Assembly: GCA_964394405.1 (NCBI GenBank)
Contig: CAYMVY010000001.1
Span: 428,585 to 492,584 of the forward strand
DNA length: 64,000 nt
From: an uncultured Gammaproteobacteria bacterium
Lineage (GTDB): Bacteria; Patescibacteriota; Patescibacteriia; Magasanikbacterales; UBA922
Direction: 5' to 3'
Positions 13,684-54,587 of this stretch are shown in pieces. Numbering within the stretch: the first letter of the stretch is position 1; each line of letters starts with the position of its first letter. Both the position numbers and the translations under genes were made by a program. The notes below the pieces were generated by a model. That model did no database searches and was not told where the DNA came from. It was given only the letters and a program-made list of their open reading frames with translations.

Positions 13684-15747
13684 TTATTTTTTAGAACCAA
13701 ATGGAGGGGTGGTGGGAATTGACCCTAATTCAAAGCCTGGGACATAGAGACACTTACCACGTTTGTGCGTTGCATTACTTTCTCCAATTCTACTCCAATC
13801 GAACATGCGCGGATCAGTATGATCCTTGGGGTTAGTTGGGTCTCCAACATCGCAATGACCAAGTATTGTTGCGTCGCCTATTCTACCTTCAATATCGTCG
13901 ATAAGTCGGTTAAGTGAAACATATTGTGCCTCGGTGTAATTACATGATAGAGAAGTTTCTCTTGAAGAATTGGCGCTACTGCATCCAGCATCAAGATCAA
14001 TTCCAATTGCGGTACGATTTTTGACACCATGCCAGATCGTGAATTTCTCATCCATCACCTGGTGAATATCTCCATCGCGAGTAATAAAGTAGTGGCTACC
14101 GATAGGTAGTTGTCCGACAGCGATTAATCCGAGCCAATGAGGAAGAGCGCCTACAGGAGAGCCTTCATGAATAGCAATGGTATTAATTGAGGCAAGAGAG
14201 CGCGTTCCCTGGGCACTACAGTCGAGATAGCCAAGATACTTGTCATTATAAGAGGTATCTACCAATTTACTTTTCTCTGCCTCTGATAATTGTTGTATGC
14301 AAGCTTTTCTACATTCTTCTCGGGCGCGAGCTCCGATCCGTTCAGGATCTTGCGTCTTTCCACGTAATTGATAGTTGGGGAAAGCACTACAATCCATCAG
14401 ATATGAGGCATTACTATTTTTGGGAGCTTTATACCGGATACTTCCAGTCATGTTTGCAGTGTTTGGAGAGGATGGTGCTGATGTATTGTTTGATGGAGAA
14501 GTACCAAGATCTTGGTCGGTAAGCAATCCATACCCTCCATCTTCATTATCATGCTGGTCAGCAACAAGTGGGGAATTGGTTCCTGGGGCCATGAGTATCT
14601 GCAAATTTCGTAGGTTCACCAATTCTGGATTAATCGTATAGAGAATAGTATAGGAGCCTGCAGTGAGGGCTATCGCAATAACCGATGAGACAATTCTGTG
14701 TTTTGCACCGCTAATTGCCTCCGTATTTCCAGCTGACGTTATAATCTGTATTCCCGATATGATTAATACGAGAACAGCAATAAATGAAATCAATCCAACG
14801 CTGTATTTGTAAATTGCTGAAATATATTCGCCCAAAAAAGGAACATTGAGCCAGGCAGCACCGCTTTCATCAGTCGTGATATTACTTTCTTTTGAAATAC
14901 TTGAAAAAACTACACCAGGTATGCGAATTTTTGTTGCAGGTGATACCAGCTTAACTTCAGGAAGTGTTACATCAATACCAAAAAAATCGGTTTGGGTTCC
15001 TCCGCCAGTAGTATTATTCTGCGCAGGTCCAGTGATTTTTCGCATTTCAGCAAGAGTGGACATAATGACACCTCCTGCTTTTTGACATACACGTATTCCT
15101 GCGAGCTCATTTCCACCGTCAGCAGCAGTCCATGACCCTGATCCATACTGATGCGCGCATTGGAGTTGTGCGCTCACCACACCACCGAGACGTACAACTC
15201 CGCAAATTTTTAATTTTTTTCCGCTCGTGTACCATGGGTCATAGTATGGGTCGCTCGGAACCTGAGAACTGGCAAGAGTAGTCTGCTGGCAACTACCAGA
15301 CGTACCGCTAGGATCCCAGCATCCGTCATCGTCATCACAGGGAAAACCAAGAAGCGCTTTTTGTGCTACAGGATAGCGCACTTCGTCAGTGGATTGTGGG
15401 GGATAGCTACTTGAAAAATCATTTTTTTTGCAAAAATTCCATTCATCGCGAAATTGGTCAGGATCATATTCTTCTTTTATGCATGTCCACTTGTCCGCGT
15501 CTAATGAAGAATTCCCATACGTGGCAGCGCAACTTGCGCTCGGAGTACTGCTTTCTCCGCAGGTGCAGAACGAATCATCGCATGTCGCTCCATCAATACA
15601 TTCAGAGGGGGCTGCGCCGGTATTACATGCCTCACCAATTTTTTTGGTCCCCGCAGACACCTCTCTTGAGGTGAGTATACCGACAGCACACAAAAAAATA
15701 ATAAAAAAGAAGGTAAGGGAAGGGTGATAAAAATTGTTTTTTTTCAT
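13684..15747 (-). CDS. secreted Cys-rich membrane protein with VirB2/TrbC-like double-TM hairpin and C-terminal Amidase_2 (N-acetylmuramoyl-L-alanine amidase / PGRP-like) domain
   Basis: Probable start MKKNNFYH (15747), which forms an ATGA overlap with the upstream dsbA-like stop. Signal peptide, then about 25 Cys in the N-terminal domain. Two adjacent TM helices separated by the short loop GNTEAISGAKHR. C-terminus matches Amidase_2 signatures (AIHEGSPVG...YHYFITRDGDIHQ...TAIGIDL...GHCDVG). Confidence 0.7.
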   Translation of the reverse strand: MKKNNFYHPSLTFFFIIFLCAVGILTSREVSAGTKKIGEACNTGAAPSECIDGATCDDSFCTCGESSTPSASCAATYGNSSLDADKWTCIKEEYDPDQFRDEWNFCKKNDFSSSYPPQSTDEVRYPVAQKALLGFPCDDDDGCWDPSGTSGSCQQTTLASSQVPSDPYYDPWYTSGKKLKICGVVRLGGVVSAQLQCAHQYGSGSWTAADGGNELAGIRVCQKAGGVIMSTLAEMRKITGPAQNNTTGGGTQTDFFGIDVTLPEVKLVSPATKIRIPGVVFSSISKESNITTDESGAAWLNVPFLGEYISAIYKYSVGLISFIAVLVLIISGIQIITSAGNTEAISGAKHRIVSSVIAIALTAGSYTILYTINPELVNLRNLQILMAPGTNSPLVADQHDNEDGGYGLLTDQDLGTSPSNNTSAPSSPNTANMTGSIRYKAPKNSNASYLMDCSAFPNYQLRGKTQDPERIGARAREECRKACIQQLSEAEKSKLVDTSYNDKYLGYLDCSAQGTRSLASINTIAIHEGSPVGALPHWLGLIAVGQLPIGSHYFITRDGDIHQVMDEKFTIWHGVKNRTAIGIDLDAGCSSANSSRETSLSCNYTEAQYVSLNRLIDDIEGRIGDATILGHCDVGDPTNPKDHTDPRMFDWSRIGESNATHKRGKCLYVPGFELGSIPTTPPFGSKK

Positions 15748-16400
15748 AACCCAAGAATTTGTTTCCATGCATCGAGTGATTGAGGAGTTTGTATTTGGGT
15801 GTTATTGATAAAGAATGTTGGCACTGATTGTAGATTGAGCGTGCGCGCAATTTCTTTGGTCAACTCAATTTGTTTGGCAGGGCGCTCGGAAGAGAGACAG
15901 GAGTCTAGGTCAGAGCGATCAAGTTGGATCTCGTCAGCAATTTGCGAAAGAGTGCCCGGTGACAGGTTGGTAGCATTGGCATATGCGTATGATGCAAATT
16001 CGTCAAATTTTTTTTGCTCATGTGCACATATTCCGTACTTGAGTGCATCAGATGAAGGGTAGGGGAAATCATTTACCGGGAGTCCCTTCCACACCATCTT
16101 TACTTTATCAGGATATTGATTTTGTAATTCCAAAAAAAGTTCATGCTGCGCCTTGCACCCTCCACAGGAAAAATCTTCAAAAGCAACCACGGTCACGGGA
16201 GATTTTTTGTTACCAATAATAGGATCGGTTGGGAGAATCGGAATAATAAATTTCGAAGATTGCTCATCTTTTTTTTGTTCATCCATCTTTGGTATGAGTG
16301 GTTCGTAGCGTACAATCTGAATAAATAATGCGAGGGCACAGAGTAGGATTGCGGGGATGAAGACTTTATATATTTTTTTGCGGGTTAATTCGGGAGCCAT
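15744..16400 (-). CDS. DsbA-family thiol:disulfide oxidoreductase (CGGC active site), membrane-anchored
   Basis: 218 aa. N-terminal TM helix; thioredoxin fold with FEDFSCGGCK. Confidence 0.7.
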   Translation of the reverse strand: MAPELTRKKIYKVFIPAILLCALALFIQIVRYEPLIPKMDEQKKDEQSSKFIIPILPTDPIIGNKKSPVTVVAFEDFSCGGCKAQHELFLELQNQYPDKVKMVWKGLPVNDFPYPSSDALKYGICAHEQKKFDEFASYAYANATNLSPGTLSQIADEIQLDRSDLDSCLSSERPAKQIELTKEIARTLNLQSVPTFFINNTQIQTPQSLDAWKQILGL

Positions 16401-16401
16401 A

Positions 16402-17664
16402 TTATTTGAGAGGGATTTGGAAGAGCCCTGACTGGTTTTTATCAGTAAAGTTCAAGGTAGAACCATCTTGACTGACAAACATGGTATCTACGACATACGA
16501 TCCATCGACTTCGAGCTCAGTCCTGATGCCAGTAACGGTATCAATTTGATAGAAAATATCAGGAGTAAAATTGGCAACCTCAGGTGCAAATCCAGCTCCA
16601 CTCTCGAGCCGTTCGGGTACACCGCAAAAAACAGTGCGTTCATCAGCCATGGCACATTTGGATGCCCAGGTCTGTACTCCGAGCGGTTTTCTATTCTCGC
16701 CCGCAGTATCAGGAGTGGCATCTACAATCCATAATTCTGGTTTATAGTCATTTCTCGAACTATACACGCTATGGAGCAGTTTGGATCCATTGGGTGACCA
16801 CTGTGTCTGTAGCCCACGTCCCTCCACTTCAATTGATCTAAAATTTTCTTGGTATTGTCCTACTAATAATACTTCTTGACGGAGTCCACCAATCGGGTCA
16901 CCAGTCAGAGAAAGAGCTAGTACTTGTCGATTGGGTGACCAGTCTACGATAACTCTCGATGCATTATTTCCTAGTGGTTCAACGAGGTTGATATTTTTCC
17001 CCGTGGGGTCAGCAGTGATAAGCCATTTGCTTTCAGGAGAAAGTCCAATACTTTTTGCAGAGATTTCAGATCCTTCTTTTGAGAAAGAAAATGACTCCCA
17101 ATGTTTGGGAAGAGTCACCTGTTCATCAGTATTAAAATTATAATAAATATTTACACCATCAGGATATTCAATAATTGATTCATCTGCGCGAGGTGACCAC
17201 GTGACTTTGTCTACGTTATAAAAAACAGTGTTACTGAGAGCCTGGACATTTCCATTTCGATCAAGTGTATAAAATTTTCCATCACTTTTGTTATAGAATC
17301 GCGCAGTACTACCCTGTCCTGCAGAAGGATTAGCAATATCAACATTCACCACTTTGGTAATTAGTGATGGTGGCTGAGAAGGGGTAGTGATATTTGAGGG
17401 AGTAGTTGGAGTGGTTGGCGTTCCTCCTCCGCCTGTAGTTCCTGTGTCGGTGGGTAATGTAGTCCCACCACCATCTGTCCCTACTATATCTTCACGTTCG
17501 CCTATAGTAGGAAATGTACCACCACCATCCGTCGTGGTTTGAGTATCTGAAAGTGTGGGAACCTGCGGTCGAACAAAAAATACACGATAGATTGCATACC
17601 CAAGTAGGATACAAAGGGCTACAAAACCGAGAATCAAGAAAATACGTTTTTTATCCATACACAA
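16402..17664 (-). CDS. TolB-like beta-propeller (PD40/WD40-like) protein with TM anchor and Thr/Gly/Pro-rich linker
   Basis: 420 aa. Repeated ...WSPNxxxL... blades (WSPRADES, WSPNRQVL, WSPNGSKL). Confidence 0.65.
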   Translation of the reverse strand: MCMDKKRIFLILGFVALCILLGYAIYRVFFVRPQVPTLSDTQTTTDGGGTFPTIGEREDIVGTDGGGTTLPTDTGTTGGGGTPTTPTTPSNITTPSQPPSLITKVVNVDIANPSAGQGSTARFYNKSDGKFYTLDRNGNVQALSNTVFYNVDKVTWSPRADESIIEYPDGVNIYYNFNTDEQVTLPKHWESFSFSKEGSEISAKSIGLSPESKWLITADPTGKNINLVEPLGNNASRVIVDWSPNRQVLALSLTGDPIGGLRQEVLLVGQYQENFRSIEVEGRGLQTQWSPNGSKLLHSVYSSRNDYKPELWIVDATPDTAGENRKPLGVQTWASKCAMADERTVFCGVPERLESGAGFAPEVANFTPDIFYQIDTVTGIRTELEVDGSYVVDTMFVSQDGSTLNFTDKNQSGLFQIPLK

Positions 17665-17710: not shown

Positions 17711-18850
17711 TCATGCTTGTTGTGGCATGGGATATTTTTGAGGAGGCCTCTTTTGTCCAGTCCTCATTTTTCGCTGTATAGATTTTATCACAGCTACAGC
17801 ATTTTGTTGAGTTTTTTCTGTTTTGTCGATATCTTTTTTAATCGAATCAATTCTTTTTTGAAGAATTGTTATCATTGATAATAGGGCACCTTTGGGAATC
17901 CACAGTAAACCGTAGATGAGATAGAGTATAACGCCGATGATTGCAAGAACGATTGTCCATGCAAGACTCATACAGACACCTGCAAGCCATTTGACGCCCG
18001 CCTGCACCACATCAACGATTGCTTTGAGGATTTTGGCACTGTATAGAGCGAAGGTGAGTACCCTTTTTTCATTTTTTAGTCTGGAGAGCCTTCTGTCTAG
18101 TCGTTGTTTTGTTTGAATTGCTTTCATGAGTTCCTTCGTCAATGGGTTGACGGATGCTGCTTGTGCTTGTCTTGCCTGCAGAGCAGCCTGTACTTGTGCC
18201 ACTCCTTCTTTTTGCACTTGATTTTTTTGGTCTAATTTTTTTTGAGCATCAGCATTGAGTGTGGCTTGTTCTAACTCCGCTTCAGCGCGCATGCCTTCTT
18301 CGAGCATCTGCCCCATATTTTCTTCCTTAGCTTCACCCTCCTTTGATTCTTCAATAGTAGAATTGGTATTTTCATCAACCGTATTAGAGAATGGTTTAGT
18401 ATCATCTGCCAGGAGATTTGCCTCATCTGGTTTGGAGTCAATTGTTGAGGCAGAAGTAACATCTCTGTTTGGTGACGCGGGTTTTGTGGGTCTCTGCTGA
18501 GTGTTTGGTGTGGTCTTGTTTTCTGTAGCAGTTGAAATAGAAGACATTTCATCTGTCGGGATTGGTGCTTCAAATTCGAGTGCAACAGTGACACCACGAT
18601 TACCATTCTGCTTTACTGATAATGAAGAGCTCCCACCGCCATCTGATTGTGTTACGCGATTTGTAATACCATCAAGCTCAATCTGATCCGCCTCGTTGGG
18701 GTTTTTAGAATTTTGTCGCGCCTGATTCCGTGCAACACTTTGGTCATAATGCAATTGTGATGCTTGGCTGGGTGCGGCAGCACCAATCGCAGCGCCGAGG
18801 ATAGCTGCCTTTGTAGTCCTCGCCCACCATGGCCCCTTCGTTTTTGCCAT
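17711..18850 (-). CDS. hypothetical secreted/membrane coiled-coil protein with C-terminal TM helices
   Basis: 379 aa. N-terminal Ala-rich signal, low-complexity acidic/Thr-rich region, coiled coil, two C-terminal hydrophobic helices. Confidence 0.5.
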   Translation of the reverse strand: MAKTKGPWWARTTKAAILGAAIGAAAPSQASQLHYDQSVARNQARQNSKNPNEADQIELDGITNRVTQSDGGGSSSLSVKQNGNRGVTVALEFEAPIPTDEMSSISTATENKTTPNTQQRPTKPASPNRDVTSASTIDSKPDEANLLADDTKPFSNTVDENTNSTIEESKEGEAKEENMGQMLEEGMRAEAELEQATLNADAQKKLDQKNQVQKEGVAQVQAALQARQAQAASVNPLTKELMKAIQTKQRLDRRLSRLKNEKRVLTFALYSAKILKAIVDVVQAGVKWLAGVCMSLAWTIVLAIIGVILYLIYGLLWIPKGALLSMITILQKRIDSIKKDIDKTEKTQQNAVAVIKSIQRKMRTGQKRPPQKYPMPQQA

Positions 18851-36944: not shown

Positions 36945-39900
36945 ATGAAAAGGAGGGGGCTAAGGGTTTTTTGGTATATTATTTTTTGTGCAGTGTTGAG
37001 CTGTGGAGGTAAAAGTATAAGCGTAGCGGCCAACAACACGGATCAGTTTTTGCAGTTGCCGATCGCGTCAAGTATAAAGGTATTACAAGGCTGGATCTAC
37101 ACCATGCCAGTGAATGGAAATCTCAATCATGGAGCCATGGATTATGACTGTGAGCCGGGTGAGTCTATTTTTGCTGCATCAGATGGAATTGCAATGTCCT
37201 CAAGACAAGTGAGTGCAGTTTCGGGATTTGGATATGGAAATTTTGTTTTTATAAAACATGATAATGAATACGCGACGCTATACGGGCATCTACACAAGCC
37301 AAGCGAAAAGATTATCGTGTATCCAAGTAATCAAAAATCAAATACACATTATTCCGAATGGGTTAGGGTACAGAAAGGAGACTACATTGGCGAGTGTGGC
37401 ACTTCAGGGGCGGATAATGTACATCTTCATTTTGAAGTGACAACTGGGAAATACGCAGTAGGTCGTGTTGATAGCTACGACCTCTACAAAACCAAACAAT
37501 TTTACCCGCCCAATGCTTCATATACTGCGTTGGGAGAAAAACATCTGTGGATGAGTGATCCTCCACAATATCTGGAAACAAAAATTGTTGAAAATCAAGT
37601 AAACGAGATGGTCACAGAAAAGAAAAGTATTTTGGATACGATCAAAGATTGGTTTGCACCAAGAGAAGTAATATCACCAGAGAGCAAAGAACGGGATACC
37701 TTAGTCACAGAAGAACTAGACTTATCTTTTGTAGATAAAAAAATATCCTTACGTGCACATCCTACGGAGAATATGCATGTAATAGTACAAGCAAAAAATA
37801 TTGGTTCTAGAGTCTGGAAAAAACAGGAAATCTCGCTCAATGTGATTGGTGGGCGAGAAGCAAATTCGATCTTCCGTCATCCTACCTGGGTTACTGATCT
37901 ACGTCCTGCATTGTTGGATAATACAGAAGTAAAACCAGGTGAAATTGGTACCTTCAGCGTACGTATCAAAAGTTTGAGTGAAGGGTCGTACACAGTGCGA
38001 CTAATGGCTGTAGAAGTAGGTACCTGGAAACAGATTGGAGCGGAAAGTATTGAGATCTCTATTGGTATAAGCGAAGAACCGCAAGAAACGATTGGGGAAA
38101 CACCAACATCTACGTCTAAAACAGAAAAAGGTAATCCTTTTGAAGGAATCGTTCGGGGAATAAAAGAGTTTACAGAAACGGTAGTAGATAAAGTGGTAGA
38201 TGTAATTAAATCAGTGCCAAGATTTTTGGGGGGTGGTGGAGGGGGATATTCTTCATCAAATGAACATAGTCAGTCTGTAGTAGAAAATCCTGTTGCAGAT
38301 CCGATTGTAATAGAGGAGCAGAATGTAGCAGAGGAAAATACAGAAGTTGAAAGTGTTCCTGAAATACAGAAAGAAGTCATACTCAATGAAATCGCATGGT
38401 CTGGATCAAGTGGTGCATGCTCGGATCATGAATGGATTGAGTTATATAATACATCGAGTACTGAGCAATCGCTTGAGAATTGGGTACTCGATATTCATAC
38501 GATAGACTCTACGAGCACAGTTATGTTAACTGGATCGATTGGAGGAAACGGATACTATCTGATCTCGCATGCAGGTGTATTTCCACCGTCTACTATCCCA
38601 GATCTGGTTATACTCCCGAATGTACAGATTCCAGATAATGGTGCAAGGCTCGTATTAAAAAATCAAGATGGAGAAATTGTTGATGAAATAGATCAAAGGG
38701 AGGGATGGCTCGGTGGAGATACGGGACGATTTCCGCGCACGCTGGAACGTGCATCATCGCATCTGTTGGATGGGGTAAATACTCGTTGGGAAACCAGTGA
38801 TTCAGTACGATACGGAGTTGCTTCGGGAGTGTGTGGGCAAATTACGGGAAGTCCAGGTATGGCAAATGAGGGATATGCATATGTATCAGACAATACCCTC
38901 GGATTTTATACTGATCAAGCTGGTGAAATTGTATTATCTTCAGAAGAAAATCCATATTTATTTTCAACGTTCAGCATACCTCAGGGAGAAAAAGTGAGTA
39001 TTAGTCGAGGAACAGTTTTCGCGGGTATTAGCTCTGACGCACGTATAGATGTAGGAGGGGAGTTGGTAGTACAAGGAAGTGAGAGTGAACCTGTAATTAT
39101 TACTTCTCGAAATGATACAGAATACATTACTTCGACTTCGTTGTGGAATAATTTATTTACCGGACAGACACCGCAAGCTGGGGATTGGCAACATATTACG
39201 ATTCATAGTGAAGGAAAACTCACTATTACTCATGCACAGATTCGGTATGGGGGGAATAGATATGGTGCAAGTATCGCATGCCTTGCATGTGCAAGATCGC
39301 AAGTGATTTCTAATCACGGTGGAAGCATATTATTATCGCATGTGGAGATAAGTAATGGATATGAATCGGGTAGTAGTGGCAAACCTGATTCTTTGATTTA
39401 CTCAGACGGCGGGAGTGTAGTGCTTGATCAATTGCATCTGCATCACGGTAAACGCGCATTGCATAGTGAGGGAAATGCAGAAATTAGCACCCGATCACTT
39501 ACCATGCATGATTTTGATTTGACTGATAAAGTTGTATTTTTTCAAGACAGAATGCCGACTGTGTGGGAGGATATTATATTTGGGGAAAATTCTCCGACAT
39601 ACGCGTACAGCCCTGCGTTAGTAGTCACTAGTTCATATATATTTAGCACCGGCACTCAGTTTCAATTTAGTACCGTGTCTGTGAGTCGGGGCGCAACGCT
39701 TACGATTAATGAAGGAAATTTGTATGCAACAGAAATAAAAATTCATGGAAATTTGAATATGCAGGGTGGAGCAACAAAAAATGAAATATCAGGCGGACCG
39801 TCTTCTTCAAGTGTATTTTCGTATATTTTGTTTTCACCTAGTTCGACGGGTGTATTATCACAGGTACGGTTGCGAGGTGGTGGGTATAGTTCTGCAAATC

Positions 39901-40289
39901 CCTTTACATCCACGCGCCCATATATGCTCTGGATTGATGGAGCATCTGTCACGATTTCCAATTCTGAATTAATAGATTCCCGGCGTCCAGGTGGAATTAT
40001 GGTTGTGAGAAACGGGAACGTAGTAGTACGAGATTCTGAGTTAGGGTGGTACACAAATTATAATAAATTATCTAGCTGGAAAGAGTATGGAATTGTAGGA
40101 ACTACTCAATCAAAAATTCATATTGAAAACCTAGATTTTCGAAAAATGGATTATGTTATAGAACTTAGTCAGGGGGCTACGACGACCTATGCTCGTATGA
40201 GCAAAGACAATTTTATTGAGCTATATAAACCTGAATTAAATCAGAAAAATTGGTTTCCACAGAATATGTTTCCATTTCAGTTGTGGTGA
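36945..40289 (+). CDS. giant secreted protein: N-terminal M23 (LytM-type) peptidase + lamin-tail domain (LTD) + long parallel beta-helix-like repeats
   Basis: 1114 aa. Signal peptide. M23 motifs (HxAxD...GECGTSGADNVHLHFEV). LTD signature (EIAWSGSSG...EWIELYNTS...NWVL). C-terminal Gly/Ser/Thr/Asn-rich beta-helix-like repeats. Confidence 0.75.
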   Translation: MKRRGLRVFWYIIFCAVLSCGGKSISVAANNTDQFLQLPIASSIKVLQGWIYTMPVNGNLNHGAMDYDCEPGESIFAASDGIAMSSRQVSAVSGFGYGNFVFIKHDNEYATLYGHLHKPSEKIIVYPSNQKSNTHYSEWVRVQKGDYIGECGTSGADNVHLHFEVTTGKYAVGRVDSYDLYKTKQFYPPNASYTALGEKHLWMSDPPQYLETKIVENQVNEMVTEKKSILDTIKDWFAPREVISPESKERDTLVTEELDLSFVDKKISLRAHPTENMHVIVQAKNIGSRVWKKQEISLNVIGGREANSIFRHPTWVTDLRPALLDNTEVKPGEIGTFSVRIKSLSEGSYTVRLMAVEVGTWKQIGAESIEISIGISEEPQETIGETPTSTSKTEKGNPFEGIVRGIKEFTETVVDKVVDVIKSVPRFLGGGGGGYSSSNEHSQSVVENPVADPIVIEEQNVAEENTEVESVPEIQKEVILNEIAWSGSSGACSDHEWIELYNTSSTEQSLENWVLDIHTIDSTSTVMLTGSIGGNGYYLISHAGVFPPSTIPDLVILPNVQIPDNGARLVLKNQDGEIVDEIDQREGWLGGDTGRFPRTLERASSHLLDGVNTRWETSDSVRYGVASGVCGQITGSPGMANEGYAYVSDNTLGFYTDQAGEIVLSSEENPYLFSTFSIPQGEKVSISRGTVFAGISSDARIDVGGELVVQGSESEPVIITSRNDTEYITSTSLWNNLFTGQTPQAGDWQHITIHSEGKLTITHAQIRYGGNRYGASIACLACARSQVISNHGGSILLSHVEISNGYESGSSGKPDSLIYSDGGSVVLDQLHLHHGKRALHSEGNAEISTRSLTMHDFDLTDKVVFFQDRMPTVWEDIIFGENSPTYAYSPALVVTSSYIFSTGTQFQFSTVSVSRGATLTINEGNLYATEIKIHGNLNMQGGATKNEISGGPSSSSVFSYILFSPSSTGVLSQVRLRGGGYSSANPFTSTRPYMLWIDGASVTISNSELIDSRRPGGIMVVRNGNVVVRDSELGWYTNYNKLSSWKEYGIVGTTQSKIHIENLDFRKMDYVIELSQGATTTYARMSKDNFIELYKPELNQKNWFPQNMFPFQLW

Positions 40290-40380: not shown

Positions 40381-40445
40381 GTTACGCAGACCACGCTCAT
40401 GTGGGGGTCCGCGAATAGAAATCATGTCTCCTCCAGTATTGTTGA

Positions 40446-41135
40446 TCAGCCGATCTGCATGGCGATGAGGGCCTTGGCACGCTGTCGGTCGACGAACTGC
40501 TTGCCGTGTCCGATCTCGGTGTTGACGGGGACACCATCCTTGCAGAATGGACACTCATCCTCGGTCCAGTTGTTGAGGTCGAGATCGTAGAGTGTCGCGA
40601 GGAAGGGCACGCCGAGTGTATCAGCGGTGACCTTGCTCATGCTCCGATTCACGATCGCAGCGACACCGAGGACCGTGCCACCGAGGGCGCGCACTGCATC
40701 GATGACTTTCTTGACCGACTGCCCAGTCGTGATGACGTCTTCTGCCACGAGAACGTCGTTGCCAGAGACGAGGGACTGGTAGCCGCGATTGAACACGAAC
40801 GACCCATCTGCCGTCTTCTCAGCGAAGACGGAATGAATCGGGAGATTCGTGCGGATGTACTGGCGCAGGTGAAACCCGAGCCAGGGGGAGAGGATCGCTC
40901 CTCCCATGGCAGGGCCGAGCACGACCTGGGGAACCTGCTTCAGTTGGGTGGTTGTGGCGAGGTGTCTGATGCACTCCTCGGAGAGCGCCTGACCCATGAG
41001 AGTCAGGAGGTCTGGCCTGGTGAAGAGTTTGTTCTTATCGACGTAGATGTCACCATGGCCACCCGCCGCATAGACGAAGTGTCCGGTGGTGATGGCGCCG
41101 ATCGCCTGGATTCTCTCTTGAGCACTCTGTCTCAT
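40446..41135 (-). CDS. type I phosphoribosyltransferase, orotate-PRTase-like (high-GC cassette)
   Basis: 229 aa. PRPP-binding VLVAEDVITTGQS. C-terminal WTEDECPFCKDGVP resembles PyrE-like proteins of high-GC lineages. GC-rich codons. Confidence 0.7.
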   Translation of the reverse strand: MRQSAQERIQAIGAITTGHFVYAAGGHGDIYVDKNKLFTRPDLLTLMGQALSEECIRHLATTTQLKQVPQVVLGPAMGGAILSPWLGFHLRQYIRTNLPIHSVFAEKTADGSFVFNRGYQSLVSGNDVLVAEDVITTGQSVKKVIDAVRALGGTVLGVAAIVNRSMSKVTADTLGVPFLATLYDLDLNNWTEDECPFCKDGVPVNTEIGHGKQFVDRQRAKALIAMQIG

Positions 41136-41269
41136 GTGTATCTCCCTATTGTGTGTGGAGGCATGGATGCCCGCCTTCTATATACGTTATTTTGTACTAT
41201 TCGTCAATATATATACCAGCTATGGTATACGTTTTTAGTTATAAATTAGCCAAATTTACTCAGTTAGGA

Positions 41270-41298
41270 TTGACATTTCTATAAAAATATGCTACACT
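41270..41298 (+). promoter_or_regulatory. consensus sigma70 promoter TTGACA-N17-(TGc)TACACT
   Basis: ttgaca 41270-41275, tacact 41293-41298. AAGGGGG RBS precedes ATG 41366. Confidence 0.5.
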
Positions 41299-41365
41299 GT
41301 TCCGTTCTAAGTAGCTGGGCAACGAGCCTTCCTACCTCTAGGACATCAACCTTAAGGGGGTGTTC

Positions 41366-41731
41366 ATGACTGCACTGAAGGCGAAGACCTATTTCGTTCC
41401 GTTCGCCATCTCGCACTATCTCGAGTTCTACGAGCGCGTGTTTGCGGGTCAGATGATCCGCGTCTACATCTACAGCCTCGGACTTCGCTGGGTGCTCCCG
41501 AGAGAGCCCAGGAACAACGAGAAGGAGAAGAAGCTCGAGTTCGAGTTCCAACTCGTTCCCGAGCCCGGAGAGACGACCCGAGCTCGGAACCGGTGGTTCG
41601 AGGGCGAGTTCCTGTGGGAGACCTGTGACGGTTTCCTGAAGGTGGAAGCCGAGCTACTCCGCCCTCTCGGGAAGGTCGAGCTCGCTCCGTGGATCGCCAA
41701 AGAGGCGACCGTGGAGCACAGACACGTCTGA
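41366..41731 (+). CDS. hypothetical protein, high-GC cassette ORF C (121 aa from MTALKAK)
   Basis: GC3-saturated codons (AAG GCG AAG ACC TAT TTC GTT CCG ...). No family recognised. Confidence 0.55.
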   Translation: MTALKAKTYFVPFAISHYLEFYERVFAGQMIRVYIYSLGLRWVLPREPRNNEKEKKLEFEFQLVPEPGETTRARNRWFEGEFLWETCDGFLKVEAELLRPLGKVELAPWIAKEATVEHRHV

Positions 41732-41809
41732 GAGCTCCAGCTCTCTCTGACCCGACGCGTGCGACATTGTCCCTGGACAATCGATCGCACACGCGTCGGG
41801 GACAATCTA

Positions 41810-41846
41810 CCCCGCCTTTCGCGAAAGGCGGGGTTTTTGTTTTTTC
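41810..41846 (+). terminator. rho-independent terminator after ORF C (preceded by a ~50-nt palindrome cgacgcgtgcga...tcgcacacgcgtcg)
   Basis: ccccgcctttcgcgaaaggcggggtttttgtttttt. Confidence 0.6.
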
Positions 41847-41954
41847 AAATAAAAAATCCTTTATTTCAAGGATGCTATATGTATCTGGAATGTGGGACAC
41901 GGTGCAACACACAGCACTCTCGAGCGAGCGTGTGGGTTGCACCGTGGTACGGCG

Positions 41955-42297
41955 TCAGTGGCTCGGGGTAGAGGAATTCGAACCTTTCCTGCTCCACACG
42001 ATGTTGTGGTACCCGGTGCAGTATCCGTGGCAGACCACCCTCGGCCCGCCTACCCTAGGTTGGGCGCTGGCCTTTTTGTGGTACACCACCTCACCCGTGA
42101 GCGCACCAGGACAGAGCTCCCAATCGGGATGGTAGGTCCCGTCGGGAGAAATCGTGGCGAGACCAGAGATGGTGCGTCCGTTCTCCTGGAAGAGAACTGC
42201 ATTGTGCAGACCCTCCCTGAAGTGGCCAGTGATCATGAGATGGTCGTCCTTTCCGGCGACACTAGTCTCGGGCTGGATCATGAACTTGTTTGTCATG
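41955..42297 (-). CDS. hypothetical protein, high-GC cassette ORF D (start at MTNKF inferred from codon-usage break)
   Basis: From MTNKF downstream the codons are C/G-ending, while the upstream 36 codons of the ORF-track ORF are AT-rich. Competing + strand ORF 41892..42410 is Arg/Ser-rich, suggesting antisense artefact. Confidence 0.4.
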
Positions 42298-42461
42298 TTG
42301 ACGGTATCCCTCCTATGTGTGTTTCCGCCTCCCAGACGGATGTTGAGCTGATAACCTTGGGCAAGGTCAGGGAGATAAAAACGACAACTAGTATCGTCTC
42401 TACTCACTGATCTGTTATATACCAGGAAACATGAACGCCCTCCACAAGGAGGGCGTAATAA

Positions 42462-42537
42462 TGGTGACCCCGGTGGGGATCGAACCCACGACCATTGGCT
42501 TAAAAGGCCACTGCTCTACCAGCTGAGCTACAGGGTC
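42462..42537 (-). tRNA. tRNA-Lys (anticodon TTT), CCA encoded
   Basis: Reverse complement GACCCTGTAGCTCAGCTGGTAGAGCAGTGGCCTTTTAAGCCAATGGTCGTGGGTTCGATCCCCACCGGGGTCACCA. Followed (3') by hairpin cgccctcc-acaa-ggagggcg. Confidence 0.85.
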
Positions 42538-42581
42538 ATTAAATTGGTTTGTCACTTACTCTTCTATTATAAGTCGATAAG

Positions 42582-42634
42582 ACCAGCTGCCCGCCCGCCG
42601 AAGCTTTAGCGTAGGCGGGAGCTACAGGGTCATT
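42582..42634 (-). other. partial copy of tRNA-Lys 5' end (13+7 nt) interrupted at the D-loop by a 30-nt GC-rich hairpin insert
   Basis: Minus strand AAT-GACCCTGTAGCTC-[CCGCCTACGCTAAAGCTTCGGCGGGCGGGC]-AGCTGGT-cttatcg versus tRNA AAT-GACCCTGTAGCTC-AGCTGGT-agagcag. Confidence 0.5.
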
Positions 42635-47670: not shown

Positions 47671-48996
47671 ATGAAATTATTGCATAAAAAAATAGTCATT
47701 GGCGTCGTGCTGCTATTAGGTGCGTTTTTTTTGGTTTCTCACAATACAGTCTATGGTTCAATTGAAGAGCAGGAACAACTACAGACAGAACTCAAAAATA
47801 TTGAAGCAGAAATTAGCAAACTGGAAAAAGAGCTTTCGACCACTAAGGGTGAGAAAAAAACCCTGAGTAATAAAATATATCAGCTGAAACAAGAGCAGAA
47901 TAAAATTAAACTCCAGATACAATCAACCACGATTCGTATCAAGACTCTAGAAGAGAAATTGGCTATTACTGCTGATGAGATTAAAAATGCTGAAGATAAA
48001 ATAGCAGAACTCAAAGGACAATTGAGTACCTTTATACGTCTACTTTATCAAAAGAATCATGAAGCACTAGTATTCCGTTTAATTTTACAAGGACAACTGA
48101 GTGACGCAGTAGTAGAAGTTCGTAATCTTGAACGATTGTCTGATTCAATTGGTGAACTGGTAAGCGAGGTAAAAAAATTAAGAGAAGAATTGGAAAATAA
48201 AAAAGAGGTATATCAGGCAGATCAGGAAGATGCCAACGAACTTTTGAAAATCACTAAAATTCAAAACACGGCATTGGGCGGAAAACTACAGGAACAGAGC
48301 CAGCTTCTCAAAGATACGCAGGGTAAAGAAGAAAATTATCAAAATCTAATCCAAGGAAACAAAAAGCGTGCAGCAGAAATAAAAAGCAGGATTTATGAAT
48401 TACTTGATGTAGGCACACAGATTACATTCGGCGAGGCAGTAACCATTGCAGAGTGGGTAGGTGGACAAACTGGCGTGCAACCATCTCTACTCCTTGCAAT
48501 TTTGACCCAAGAATCCAATCTAGGAAAAAATGTGGGAACCTGTAATCGTCTAGGTGATCCGCCAGAAAAAAGCTGGAAAGTAATTATGAAGCCAGAGCGT
48601 GATCAAGAACCATTTAAGACAATTACTGCAGAACTTGAAAAAGATCCGGATATCACACCAGTGTCTTGTCCAATGAAAAATAAAGATGGGAGTCAACTCG
48701 GCTGGGGAGGTGCAATGGGGCCCGCACAGTTTATTCCATCGACATGGGTGAGGTATAAGGCAAAAGTTTCAGCTATAACTGGTAAAACTCCTGCAGACCC
48801 ATGGGATATTCGAGATGCATTCCTTGCCTCAGCACTACTGCTCAAAGCAAATGGTGCAGACGGTACGCGTAACGGAAATTGGAAAGCAGCGATGCGATAT
48901 TTTTCAGGAGGAACCAATCCCAAATACAGTTTTTACGGGGACAATGTGTTGGCGCTTGCTGATAAGTATGAAGAAGATATCAAAGCGTTGAAATAG
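47671..48996 (+). CDS. secreted coiled-coil protein with C-terminal MltB-like lytic transglycosylase domain
   Basis: 441 aa. Signal/TM, about 230 aa of coiled coil. C-terminal ILTQESNLG and GAMGPAQFIPSTW are hallmarks of MltB/SLT_2. Confidence 0.7.
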   Translation: MKLLHKKIVIGVVLLLGAFFLVSHNTVYGSIEEQEQLQTELKNIEAEISKLEKELSTTKGEKKTLSNKIYQLKQEQNKIKLQIQSTTIRIKTLEEKLAITADEIKNAEDKIAELKGQLSTFIRLLYQKNHEALVFRLILQGQLSDAVVEVRNLERLSDSIGELVSEVKKLREELENKKEVYQADQEDANELLKITKIQNTALGGKLQEQSQLLKDTQGKEENYQNLIQGNKKRAAEIKSRIYELLDVGTQITFGEAVTIAEWVGGQTGVQPSLLLAILTQESNLGKNVGTCNRLGDPPEKSWKVIMKPERDQEPFKTITAELEKDPDITPVSCPMKNKDGSQLGWGGAMGPAQFIPSTWVRYKAKVSAITGKTPADPWDIRDAFLASALLLKANGADGTRNGNWKAAMRYFSGGTNPKYSFYGDNVLALADKYEEDIKALK

Positions 48997-52559: not shown

Positions 52560-53108
52560 CTATTTTCGTACAATTACTGCGGTTACTTTCTTGCCCTGTC
52601 GTGTAATTTCTTGCTCAAATTTGACTGGAACCGCAGGTTCGAGCTTTTTGAGCATCGTTTCGATTACTTCATTCGCTAGATCTCCCCGAGCGTTTTCTCG
52701 GCCTTTGAGGACGACTTCGAGACGTACTTTGTCTCCGCGCAAGAGAAATTTTTCTGCTTGGTCAGCCTTGATACCAAGATCGTGGTCGCTGATGCGGATG
52801 GAGAGGCGCACCCCTTTGATTTCACTCACGTGTGAGTGTGCTTTCTGTTTGCGTGCTTCTTTCTCTTTTTGATACTTAAATTCAGTGAAATCTATGAGTT
52901 TGACAACCGGCGGAGTACTCTTTGGGTTAATTTCGACCAAATCAAGCTCGCGTTCCTCTGCGAGTGCTCGCGCCTCTACTGAGGTCATGATATTGATACG
53001 TTGACCTTCTTCATCGAGTACCAAAACTTCAGGAGAGTCTATTTCCTGATTTTTTCGGTAATGCGCAATAAGAGGTTTATCTGGTCTTTTTTTACGGGAG
53101 ATTCGCAT
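52560..53108 (-). CDS. infC: translation initiation factor IF-3
   Basis: 182 aa. IF3 N- and C-domains. Standard infC-rpmI-rplT order. Confidence 0.9.
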   Translation of the reverse strand: MRISRKKRPDKPLIAHYRKNQEIDSPEVLVLDEEGQRINIMTSVEARALAEERELDLVEINPKSTPPVVKLIDFTEFKYQKEKEARKQKAHSHVSEIKGVRLSIRISDHDLGIKADQAEKFLLRGDKVRLEVVLKGRENARGDLANEVIETMLKKLEPAVPVKFEQEITRQGKKVTAVIVRK

Positions 53109-53190: not shown

Positions 53191-53594
53191 TGGTGGAGAT
53201 GCCGGGAATTGAACCCGGGTCTAGACGGGTTACCCCTACAGTCTACATGTGTGTCGATATTTGGGGTAGTAACATGCGATTAAAAAATATCGCAAAATGT
53301 CGCATGCACTCATATGCTAGGTTTCAACAAACTGCGGATATGATACACAGCTTGTCTACACTCGAGCGTGGGTTGGCACCGCGAGCCCGCTATCGAGTAT
53401 CGCGGGTGCGATGGCATGTAGGTTTTAAGCTACAGCAGGAGCAAAGCTAGATACACTGAAAGCTTTCGCTACAGCGCTCTTAGCTCGCTCTAACAAGTTT
53501 GCACTTGTAGGTTTGCCTGAGAGTATACAGAGATCAGGCACTCTGACATGCATATAAAAGATAACGAGTCCGCCTATCGAACCCTGTCATCCCC
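53191..53594 (-). ncRNA. ssrA: tmRNA (ssrA)
   Basis: Minus-strand 5' end GGGGATGACAGGGTTCGATAGGCGGAC matches the tmRNA 5' consensus. 3' end ...CCCGGGTTCAATTCCCGGCATCTCCACCA is the tRNA-like T-arm plus acceptor plus CCA. Internal ORF-like tag ends ...AKAFSVSSFAPAVA-TAA. Immediately downstream of smpB. Confidence 0.75.
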
Positions 53595-53612
53595 ATAAAT
53601 TGTAACGATCAA

Positions 53613-54065
53613 CTACTCATCTCTCCCATATTTCACTGCCCGTTGGAGAGTGCGTTTGTGCTCTTTTTCCTTGATACTTCGGCGTTTATCATAATTCTTT
53701 TTTCCCTTAGCAATGCCGATTTCCATTTTGATCCGAGCGCCCTTAGTATAGAGGGAAAGTGGCACGATTGTCAAGCCGTTCTCCTCGCTTTTTCCGCGTA
53801 AATAACTGATTTCTTTGGCTTTGAGCAGAAGTTTTCTCGTAGCGTCAGGGATATAGTTTTCTCTGCGGGCATATCGATAGGGTCCGATATGCATATTGAC
53901 AACACTCGCTTGTGTTCCCCGGACGATAACAAAACTACCATCCAGTTTGGCACTACCCTGGCGTACAGCCTTGACCTCTCCGCCAGTCAATACCAAGCCA
54001 GCCTCGAGTACTTCGAGGATGTCATAGTCAAATCGAGCTTTTTTGTTTGATGCAAGTGTTGCCAT
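53613..54065 (-). CDS. smpB: SsrA-binding protein SmpB
   Basis: Start at MATLASNKKARFDYDILE. Conserved SmpB core (GGEVKAVRQG...GTQASVVNMHIGPY). Confidence 0.85.
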   Translation of the reverse strand: MATLASNKKARFDYDILEVLEAGLVLTGGEVKAVRQGSAKLDGSFVIVRGTQASVVNMHIGPYRYARRENYIPDATRKLLLKAKEISYLRGKSEENGLTIVPLSLYTKGARIKMEIGIAKGKKNYDKRRSIKEKEHKRTLQRAVKYGRDE

Positions 54066-54104
54066 ATAGAGCAGAGTATAGCGGATTTTTGCTATTTTGC
54101 AAGA

Positions 54105-54587
54105 TTGGAACATAGCGTGTATACTTATACTTATTTGATTATGAATACTATGGAAGAAAATGGAGAGAAAAAAATGAGTATGCCGGCAGTCACAAGTATT
54201 GTGATAGTGGTGGTAATTATCATCGGCACTACTTTTCTCGGTGTATGGCTATATCAGAAATCACAAAAAACAAATACTCAGCCTCAATCTGAAATACCTG
54301 CAGTTGAAACTCCAGTAGAACCAGCACTTTCAGCAGAAGAATTGCGCGAGAATTTTGTACACGCGGTGGATACCTTGATAGAAGAAGTTGCTACGCTAAA
54401 TACACAAACATCTACCGAGCTTATCTCGTATGTTGAGGATCGTCTGATGACTATTCGTGTTCCGAGCGAAGAGAAGGACACCTATCTCAATGTATTCCTC
54501 GCTATAGAAAATTTGAAAAAAACTGAATCAGAATCCGTCGATAGTGTAAAAACAAAAATGATTGAACTAATTTCATCACTACGTTAA
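54105..54587 (+). CDS. hypothetical membrane-anchored acidic protein
   Basis: 160 aa. One TM helix, acidic helical C-terminus. Probably starts at an internal Met. Confidence 0.45.
   Translation: MEHSVYTYTYLIMNTMEENGEKKMSMPAVTSIVIVVVIIIGTTFLGVWLYQKSQKTNTQPQSEIPAVETPVEPALSAEELRENFVHAVDTLIEEVATLNTQTSTELISYVEDRLMTIRVPSEEKDTYLNVFLAIENLKKTESESVDSVKTKMIELISSLR

Follow-up and report, generated by a model that had tools for sequence, protein, structure and literature searches.

The Patescibacteria account for a large part of bacterial diversity, and they grow attached to other microbes. In S. epibionticum, the only species in which this has been examined, a type IV secretion system (T4SS) and its VirB2-like pilins are essential for epibiotic growth. 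The role of the Patescibacteria T4SS has been described as completely unknown (PMC11665869), and most genomes of this phylum that encode VirB2-like pilins are without VirB1 (PMC12102498). The pilins of the T4SS_pilin family (PF18895), such as SEML1_0014-0019 of S. epibionticum (Wang et al. 2023, PMC10633639; PMC12102498), are stand-alone proteins of 110-200 amino acids (aa; median 137), often encoded near virB4 and often in arrays, and a 2025 survey (Quinonero-Coronel et al., PMC12102498) treats VirB2 homologues as small proteins. We describe here a protein of 687 aa from the same phylum, encoded in a 64-kb stretch of contig CAYMVY010000001.1 (the window, by which we mean the whole stretch of DNA analysed), that has a hairpin homologous to that of the PF18895 pilins, with conserved columns and a short Gly-Asn...Ala-Lys turn in common, and that likewise begins with a signal peptide. 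Unlike those pilins, it has two collars next to the hairpin, a 245-aa Cys-rich domain on the N-terminal side and a tail of ~300 aa with a tethered enzyme, a predicted peptidoglycan amidase, on the C-terminal side, and its gene lies in a housekeeping operon next to a gene for a DsbA-like partner (Table 1).

The hydrolases that serve T4SSs provide a further comparison. VirB1-type and Gram-positive T4SS hydrolases (PrgK of pCF10, TraG of pIP501, CwlT of ICEBs1, TcpG and SEML1_0006/0007) are also membrane-anchored, modular peptidoglycan hydrolases, and they cover the same lytic range as the family to which the 687-aa protein belongs, namely lysozyme/SLT, M15, M23 and CHAP/NlpC; they often combine two complementary activities, as do the tandem fusions found at some loci of the present family. 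They differ in that they have a single N-terminal transmembrane (TM) helix and are encoded in T4SS clusters, whereas here the membrane segment is a pilin hairpin and no T4SS is encoded nearby, and Amidase_2 is not typical of them.

The longest open reading frame (ORF) at this locus, 13684-15768 on the minus strand, encodes 694 aa, which is the form of a public-database entry (P0001) that starts at 15768; read from the ATG at 15747, the protein has 687 aa. This ATG and the stop codon of the DsbA-like gene upstream share the sequence ATGA, and because the same 4-nt overlap between the DsbA-like and fusion genes recurs at the orthologous loci L001-L003, we prefer the 687-aa form. The protein is composed of five parts: a signal peptide, a Cys-rich N-terminal domain (N-domain), a two-helix hairpin, a disordered tether and an Amidase_2 domain of PGRP fold. 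The three-part architecture proposed in the initial annotation of this sequence (Cys-rich region, double-TM hairpin and amidase) is correct according to Pfam, hydropathy analysis and an AlphaFold2 model; the model used was built from a 55-sequence alignment and has a mean predicted local distance difference test (pLDDT) score of 77, while that from the single sequence was unusable (pLDDT 37.7). The motif GFPCDDDDGCWDPSGTSGSC, quoted in the same annotation, is present in the translated ORF, and the basic loop GNTEAISGAKHR is found at residues 340-351, flanked by hydrophobic stretches at residues 309-337 and 352-372. The cysteines, however, had been overcounted: about 25 were placed in the N-terminal region, but the whole protein has 23, of which 1 is in the signal peptide, 14 are in the N-domain and 8 follow the hairpin. 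The hydropathy profile (Kyte-Doolittle) has a peak at residues 6-33, and the VSA-type end of the signal peptide is also kept in the homologues P0003 and P0005. A sequence search found 17 homologues of the 687-aa protein, and these, together with the invariant cysteines and the conserved synteny described below, confirm that the gene and its architecture are real and not due to chance.

The relation of the hairpin to T4SS pilins is clearest when the family, rather than the single protein, is considered. In the 687-aa protein, PF18895 matches residues 307-363 with E = 0.009 and 16.4 bits (cut-off 26.6), a mycoplasma integrative and conjugative element pilin-like family of NCBIfam gives a sub-threshold match, and PF04956 (TrbC/VirB2) gives no match at E <= 1. 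However, PF18895 matches 10 of the 10 homologues tested, in two of them (P0013 and P0017) above the cut-off, and it is found at E <= 1e-3 in 69 of 90 relatives in a Pfam census. A profile of the hairpin core (alignment A1) retrieved 259 stand-alone Patescibacteria pilins of 110-207 aa with E values down to 1e-36, most of which are annotated with PF18895 and a few also with PF04956; this word-indexed search gave only proteins of <=207 aa, and the long fusions came from an exhaustive search of representative sequences. The bridge to PF04956 consists of the few small relatives that match both families plus one of the 90 long ones. The predicted pilin assignment thus holds at the level of the family: the earlier description of the hairpin as VirB2/TrbC-like stands as far as homology to PF18895 pilins is concerned, and not as a match of the protein alone, which is below the PF18895 cut-off and absent for PF04956.

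The small pilins align to positions ~33-108 of the core and stop about 10 residues later, where the extension of the fusion protein starts. Most of them do not align at the first collar, and the Asn-Pro pair of the second collar is not conserved among them. Judging from these alignments, the core is a pilin hairpin that has been extended at both ends with two juxtamembrane collars, one with the motif PxIxIPGxxF before the hairpin and the other with YTILYxxNPELV after it (NPELVNLRNL in this protein). The alignment-based model has helices at residues 303-337 and 342-372 with pLDDT of 88-93. The hairpin is also the most conserved part of the protein, with 70-82% identity in 11 of 12 orthologues and 50% in P0013, compared to 30-57% for the N-domain, and invariant collar residues are kept across 90 clusters that are <50% identical overall. 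Since it is the best-conserved part and keeps these collar residues, the hairpin is probably more than an anchor.

Searched exhaustively, the core profile matched 56,299 representative clusters when the limit was set at E <= 1e-3, and 236 of these when it was set at E <= 1e-30. Our counts are based on the 150 best representatives and on 80 loci of GTDB species representatives that were picked by similarity to this subfamily, and it is this subfamily, not the full set of 56,299 matches, to which they apply; the clusters of C-terminal tails were made by single linkage and are coarse. The best 150 clusters are nearly all long fusions, with Amidase_2, SLT, VanY/M15, M23, NlpC/P60, C39-like, GH18, lysozyme or GDSL-lipase domains, and the pairing of hairpin and Amidase_2 occurs in about 20 of them. 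In the Pfam census of 90 clusters, Amidase_2 was found in 14, SLT and VanY in 12 each, GDSL lipase in 8, Peptidase_C39_2 and NlpC/P60 in 5 each, Exo_endo_phos and M23 in 3 each, and GH18 and CHAP in 2 each. Within the Patescibacteria, the family has its centre in the ABY1/Magasanikbacteria-Falkowbacteria part.

The close homologues have the N-domain and the hairpin in common and differ in the C-terminal domain, or head. The head is Amidase_2 in P0001, P0002 and P0004, VanY/M15 in P0005-8, SLT-like in P0003 and P0009, M15-like in P0010-12 and M23-like in P0013. Identity to the 687-aa protein is 50-82% in the hairpin core and about 15% in the unrelated heads, and the break in homology is sharp, directly after NPELVNL(R/K)NLK. 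P0003 is the closest relative by its N-domain, yet it has a different head. These comparisons indicate that the conserved part of the family is the hairpin with its two collars and that the head is interchangeable, with amidase, lysozyme/transglycosylase, M15, M23 and C39- or NlpC-type domains all in use.

Hairpin number was counted in 157 proteins, comprising new representatives and P0001-P0018. A single hairpin is present in 135, which extend beyond it by a median of 143 aa towards the N-terminus and 260 aa towards the C-terminus, and 2-8 tandem hairpins are present in the other 22. P0139-P0148, P0180 and P0207 are single polypeptides of 2-8 tandem pilin-like hairpins (8 in the 820-aa P0143, and 6 each in P0146, P0148 and P0180), and they look as if the pilin gene arrays described in Patescibacteria had been joined covalently into one chain. 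P0014 and P0015 carry an enzyme on each side of the hairpin, with an alpha/beta-hydrolase-like N-terminal domain (GHSMGS in P0015) and an SLT-like or VanY C-terminal domain; another two-enzyme type, with an N-terminal GDSL lipase, is encoded at L026:7254-9212.

Exchange of heads is seen most directly at a fixed genomic position. The gene order PGM, ClpC, an unknown gene, propeller, DsbA-like, fusion, RadA and, farther on, RecG is found in the window and in four other genomes, and RadA is the next gene downstream of the fusion, 70-170 nt away, in the window and at L001-L003 and L005. About 45 of the 80 GTDB loci retain the slot with ClpC, propeller, DsbA, fusion and RadA; their RadA proteins are 44-84% identical to that of the window, and at least 10 kinds of lytic head occupy the slot. 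The nearest genomes, in which RadA is 83-84% identical, have VanY/M15-type heads instead of the amidase, and some loci have two tandem fusions with different, complementary heads. The slot is vertically inherited, and its lytic head has been swapped even between genomes with 84%-identical RadA. In 44 related loci the propeller gene directly precedes the DsbA-like gene, with 35-70% identity; its orthologues have PD40 repeats in 17 of 33 cases and SGL in 13 of 33, the window copy itself has no Pfam match, and a PDB sequence search with the propeller protein gave nothing significant. Synteny suggests a functional tie between the propeller and the amidase.

A second type of locus, with the order SecG, DsbA, fusion, UvrA, recurs in about 10 of the 80 GTDB loci. 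The genome of the window has such a second pair of DsbA-like and hairpin-fusion genes between SecG and UvrA (L007:2502-4734). P0016, the paralogue at the second locus, has 496 aa and a Cys-rich C-terminal domain of unknown type.

The head of the 687-aa protein is an Amidase_2 domain. Amidase_2 (PF01510) matches residues 549-646 with E = 4.3e-10 and 40.5 bits (cut-off 26), the NCBIfam AmpD model matches with E = 8e-8, and PDB sequence matches of the domain include AmpDh2, AmpD and T7 lysozyme. Similarly, the alignment-based model, in which the domain is well defined (pLDDT 84-98 over residues 466-666), was matched by Foldseek to AmpD (2y28; E = 2.4e-5, TM-score 0.60), to clostridial amidase endolysins and PGRPs, and to phage amidases. 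The Amidase_2/PGRP-like assignment of the initial annotation is upheld by these matches, and the zinc-binding residues that it suggested checking are there: H527, H631 and D645 are present and are conserved in 25-26 of 28 hairpin-linked Amidase_2 proteins. An acidic residue, D584, stands at the position of AmpD Glu116 (it aligns with the Glu of 'GIE' in AmpDh2 and AmpD) and is conserved in 24 of the 28, and the position of the AmpD Lys is, as read from the sequences, His in the three closest amidase orthologues. From these residues and the model, we predict a zinc amidase with an intact His-His-Asp site that would cut the bond between N-acetylmuramic acid (MurNAc) and L-Ala. AmpD, AmpDh2, AmpDh3, T7 lysozyme, endolysins and PGRPs have the fold and the AmpD-type zinc site in common with this domain, but those proteins are soluble or lipid-anchored and are without the pilin hairpin, the Cys-rich partner domain and the disulfide set, and they have Glu rather than Asp (D584 here) at the general-base position. 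The tether that connects the amidase to the hairpin is not conserved beyond the collar, and it is there that homology between orthologues breaks.

Given the signal peptide at the front and the basic turn of the hairpin behind it, both large domains would lie outside the membrane. We therefore infer an N-out/C-out topology for the N-domain and the amidase, whether or not the signal peptide is cleaved. The number of cysteines in the C-terminal tail is even in 17 of 17 proteins (P0001-P0017), and the tail of P0018 has 19. The DsbA-like protein encoded upstream matches Thioredoxin_4 (E = 7e-27) and DSBA (E = 7e-10) in Pfam, and each of the 6 DsbA-like examples compared has both a CxxC motif and a TM helix at its N-terminus. 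A DsbA-like ORF lies directly upstream of the fusion in 52 of 73 testable genes or arrays, so that the co-occurrence with dsbA raised in the initial annotation is indeed found, and P0016 is also preceded by a DsbA-like gene. The outside placement of the amidase, which had also been proposed, is backed by the signal peptide, the basic loop, the even tail cysteines and the coupled CxxC gene. The DsbA-like gene and the gene for its putative client, a Cys-rich exported protein, form a genetically linked pair, and disulfide formation is predicted. Membrane-anchored or periplasmic thioredoxin-fold enzymes are needed to fold disulfide-bonded pilus and T4SS proteins in several systems, among them MdbA for actinobacterial pilins, BdbD for ComGC, and TrbB and TraF for F-type T4SSs. 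Here, by comparison, the oxidoreductase is translationally coupled to one client or tandem pair, and this recurs at two loci in one genome, an arrangement that we have not seen described.

The N-domain is less widespread than the hairpin. All 14 of its cysteines are invariant in 13 of 13 orthologues, and the domain is modelled with confidence (pLDDT 80-93). It has no Pfam match above cut-off, and Foldseek with the whole model matched the amidase domain alone, with no fold match for the N-domain in PDB or BFVD. A profile search found no stand-alone N-domain protein of similar size, with a tool that seems to prefer targets about as long as the query. In full, the domain is seen only in some 15-20 close orthologues, and its first ~75 aa form a Cys module that is more widespread and recurs in other fusions.

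These features suggest how the protein may work. Its N-terminus would be exported by the Sec pathway, and the two long hydrophobic helices would enter the membrane as a hairpin whose short basic turn faces the cytoplasm, which would leave the N-domain and the amidase both outside the membrane. The co-translated, membrane-anchored DsbA-like enzyme would then form the disulfides of both domains, and the flexible tether of ~75 residues would let the amidase reach the wall and cut the MurNAc-L-Ala bond. In this scheme the hairpin and collars would set the location, so that a wall cutter is held at a particular place, and that place may be beside a pilin-based, T4SS-like apparatus, where the producer's own wall would be opened locally in the space-making manner of VirB1. 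Because the hairpin sits in the cell's own membrane, the tether should reach the cell's own wall only. In S. epibionticum, separate lysozyme-like and M15B-like genes adjoin virB4 and the PF18895 pilins, and both are reported as essential; the same enzyme classes are here fused to a pilin hairpin, which by Rosetta-stone logic suggests a functional link. In addition, two Magasanikbacteria genomes with such loci are VirB4-positive, and the rarity of VirB1 among Patescibacteria genomes that encode VirB2-like pilins (PMC12102498) also speaks for such a role. We favour, tentatively and at somewhat less than even confidence, a surface-tethered amidase that opens the cell's own wall beside a pilin apparatus, with a VirB1-like role. 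Both the coupling to a T4SS and the choice of the cell's own wall rather than that of a host as the target are putative parts of this proposal.

Several observations weigh against it. No T4SS gene (virB4, virB6 or prgI; ATPase or channel) was found in the window or among the recurrent large neighbours of the 80 related loci, whereas the small pilins are often near virB4. A VirB1-like protein would be expected to have a lytic domain, a membrane or periplasmic location and a place in a T4SS cluster; the lytic domain is present and the location is predicted from the topology, but the place in a T4SS cluster was not found. The core profile detected no solved pilin among PDB sequences at E <= 10, nor was there a pilin among the Foldseek matches of the model, and for this reason the link to VirB2/TrbC proper is indirect. 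The PF18895 score of the 687-aa protein, being below the cut-off, is a weak point in the same direction. Finally, the family includes relatives with GDSL lipase, EEP nuclease/phosphatase and GH18 domains, which fit host degradation or scavenging better, and the swapping of heads between genomes with 84%-identical RadA would also be expected from adaptation to a host.

The last two observations belong to a host-directed explanation, which we consider unlikely, though not negligible. On this account, the hairpin would be extracted into or onto the tip of a T4SS-type pilus, or the head would be released by cleavage at the collar, and the head would reach the wall of the host and breach or harvest it. 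Such a scheme would suit what is known of other pilins: RP4 TrbC and other P-type pilins undergo C-terminal trimming, and F-pilin can display added sequence at its C-terminus. The hairpin is homologous to pilins and strongly conserved, the T4SS and pilins are what S. epibionticum needs for epibiotic growth, and heads swap between close relatives as if they tracked the wall chemistry of the host. The lipase, nuclease/phosphatase and GH18 heads, moreover, read as a scavenging repertoire; such organisms lack lipid and nucleotide synthesis (PMC11665869). However, ectodomains of 245 and 300 aa on each subunit cannot pack in a VirB2-type helical lattice, which leaves only sporadic or tip incorporation; a hairpin held in the membrane restricts the tether to the cell's own wall; and we saw no sign of cleavage. 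The gene is also part of a vertically inherited, core housekeeping operon with no T4SS genes nearby, and what comes next is RadA, not an immunity gene. The attack on a host wall proposed in the initial annotation is, for these reasons of tether reach and genomic context, not directly supported. A more elaborate version, in which the T4SS machinery pulls the hairpin from the membrane, mounts it on a pilus or releases it from one and so carries the swappable heads to the host envelope, seems to us improbable; if true, the hairpin would be a delivery handle, and this would explain why T4SS and pilins are essential and by what means these cells break into their hosts and feed on them. The opposite simplification, an ordinary housekeeping autolysin for the cell's own growth and division, with the hairpin as a mere two-pass anchor and no link to a secretion system, we find about as doubtful as the host-directed account. 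It would explain well why, throughout a wide clade, the gene is present as a single copy in a core slot with conserved synteny, flanked by ClpC and RadA, among housekeeping neighbours and away from T4SS genes, and why it has a conserved TolB/PD40-like propeller partner, given that Tol-Pal is tied to septal wall processing in diderms and that cell separation is served by any of the lytic chemistries in different bacteria. It would explain less well why the hairpin and collars are the most conserved part, when passive anchors usually evolve fast, or why bond specificity is exchanged at 84% RadA identity, which would be odd for a tightly regulated division enzyme. Nor do the lipase and nuclease heads of the family fit, and the window has other wall hydrolases, of the M23 and SLT_2 types, without a hairpin.

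Two further explanations are much less probable than those above. The conserved N-terminal part, the variable C-terminal domain and the sharp break after NPELVNL(R/K)NLK recall polymorphic toxins, in which (as in CdiA, Rhs and X-T4SS effectors) a conserved N-terminal delivery part would carry variable wall-degrading toxins against competitors, and the head of P0003 does not track the phylogeny of its N-domain. We nevertheless regard a toxin as very unlikely, since no adjacent immunity gene was present at any locus examined, where RadA follows 70-170 nt downstream, no orphan head or immunity cassettes lie downstream, and the setting is a core operon and not an island. The X-Tfes of Xanthomonas and Stenotrophomonas (PMC6759196, PMC8262851) offer a parallel of this kind, with a T4SS-linked set of interchangeable wall hydrolases and lipases made of a conserved recognition part and a variable enzyme, but they are soluble proteins with a C-terminal XVIPCD read by VirD4 and adjacent immunity genes, and they are injected into rivals; none of these latter features was seen here. 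A protein that does not act outside the cell, either a cytoplasmic AmpD-like recycling amidase or a prophage holin-endolysin fusion, is extremely improbable. The best matches of the amidase do include cytoplasmic AmpD and phage endolysins, and a two-TM segment joined to an amidase superficially resembles a holin with its endolysin, but the signal peptide and hairpin put the C-terminal domain outside, the C-terminal region has an even number of cysteines (8) and the gene is coupled to DsbA, the hairpin matches pilins and not holins, and the locus is a syntenic housekeeping one with no prophage. We rejected the cytoplasmic AmpD-like role on the evidence of topology and cysteines; a phage origin was rejected because no relatives were found in 2.9 million viral contigs, and a conjugative-element context was rejected because the window is core genome.

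The individual pieces of the system are known: Amidase_2, the PF18895 pilins (PMC10633639, PMC12102498), modular T4SS hydrolases of Gram-positive bacteria and pilus oxidoreductases. The hairpin-hydrolase architecture is also already implicit in public domain databases. As a large family, with a fixed slot in which heads are swapped and with a DsbA pairing, it appears to be undescribed; we found no paper on the family, the slot or the pairing in the literature searched, which omits much subscription literature. The initial annotation had not recognised the domain combination as described, and this agrees with the absence of a describing paper in our search, but the combination is not rare, with Amidase_2 in 14 of the 90 census clusters. 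The fusions are candidates for the missing VirB1 function in Patescibacteria, or alternatively for T4SS effectors, and they provide proteins, residues and partners that can be tested. The fixed slot with swapped heads amounts to a natural experiment in the exchange of enzyme modules, the pairing of DsbA and client suggests that even organisms with minimal genomes set aside machinery for oxidative folding, and the heads, which are diverse and putatively stabilised by disulfides, form a set of wall-lytic enzymes that may have practical use.

Table 1. Positions in the window of the fusion gene, its parts and the two genes upstream that accompany it
Feature	Residues	Position	Strand	Basis or remark
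Whole gene, pilin-hairpin peptidoglycan amidase (687 aa)		13684..15747	-	ORF list; stop codon 13684-13686
Predicted signal peptide	1-32	15652..15747	-	MKKNN, hydrophobic core, VSA/G; putative cleavage site
N-terminal extracytoplasmic (predicted) Cys-rich domain (245-aa domain)	33-276	14920..15651	-	14 cysteines
Extended pilin-like hairpin core	277-396	14560..14919	-	Collar, helix 1 (303-337), basic turn (338-351), helix 2 (352-372), collar
Disordered S/T/N/P/D-rich tether (~75 aa)	391-465	14353..14577	-	pLDDT <50 at 391-435 and 438-443; low to 465
C-terminal Amidase_2/PGRP-fold zinc amidase domain with helical N-terminal extension	466-666	13750..14352	-	Pfam, NCBIfam, Foldseek
Zinc ligand of AmpD-type His-His-Asp triad	H527	14167-14169	-	
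Zinc ligand of AmpD-type His-His-Asp triad	H631	13855-13857	-	
Zinc ligand of AmpD-type His-His-Asp triad	D645	13813-13815	-	
DsbA-like thiol-disulfide oxidoreductase (218 aa), membrane-anchored		15744..16400	-	CGGC active site; translationally coupled upstream of amidase gene
Third module gene (420 aa): N-terminal TM helix, Thr/Gly-rich linker, PD40/TolB-like beta-propeller		16402..17664	-	Synteny, Pfam of orthologues

The unknown gene of the conserved gene order has, in the window, a counterpart at 17711-18850 (minus strand) that is found only in close relatives and encodes a protein of 379 aa, the middle of which is a low-complexity coiled coil and the C-terminal part of which has TM helices; it and the propeller gene both lie between ClpC and the DsbA-like gene. 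A scan for promoters and terminators of the operon gave counts no better than those of shuffled sequence and was not used.

Elsewhere in the window, two wall hydrolases without a pilin hairpin are encoded on the plus strand, a 1114-aa protein with Peptidase_M23 and Lamin-tail domains (36945-40289) and an SLT_2 hydrolase (47671-48996). Two very large ORFs, of 1016 aa (25236-28286, minus strand) and 1702 aa (57748-62856, plus strand), have no Pfam match. An island of ~2.2 kb (40400-42600) with 50-63% GC in a genome of ~41% GC adjoins a tRNA-Lys gene (42462-42537, minus strand); it includes a phosphoribosyltransferase-like ORF (40446-41135, minus strand) and, at 41250-42450, ORFs that overlap one another on the two strands and match nothing in Pfam or Rfam. 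The island may have been acquired, or it may hold an RNA gene that has escaped recognition. Among the related loci, L010-L014, L016, L025, L027 and others have the gene order and proteins of Magasanikbacteria (class ABY1), and their titles, which read 'uncultured Gammaproteobacteria bacterium', look mislabelled. Finally, the minus-strand region 53191-54113 of the window has a tmRNA gene (tag peptide ANLLERAKSAVAKAFSVSSFAPAVA) beside SmpB, with IF-3 at 52560-53108; these are ordinary features.

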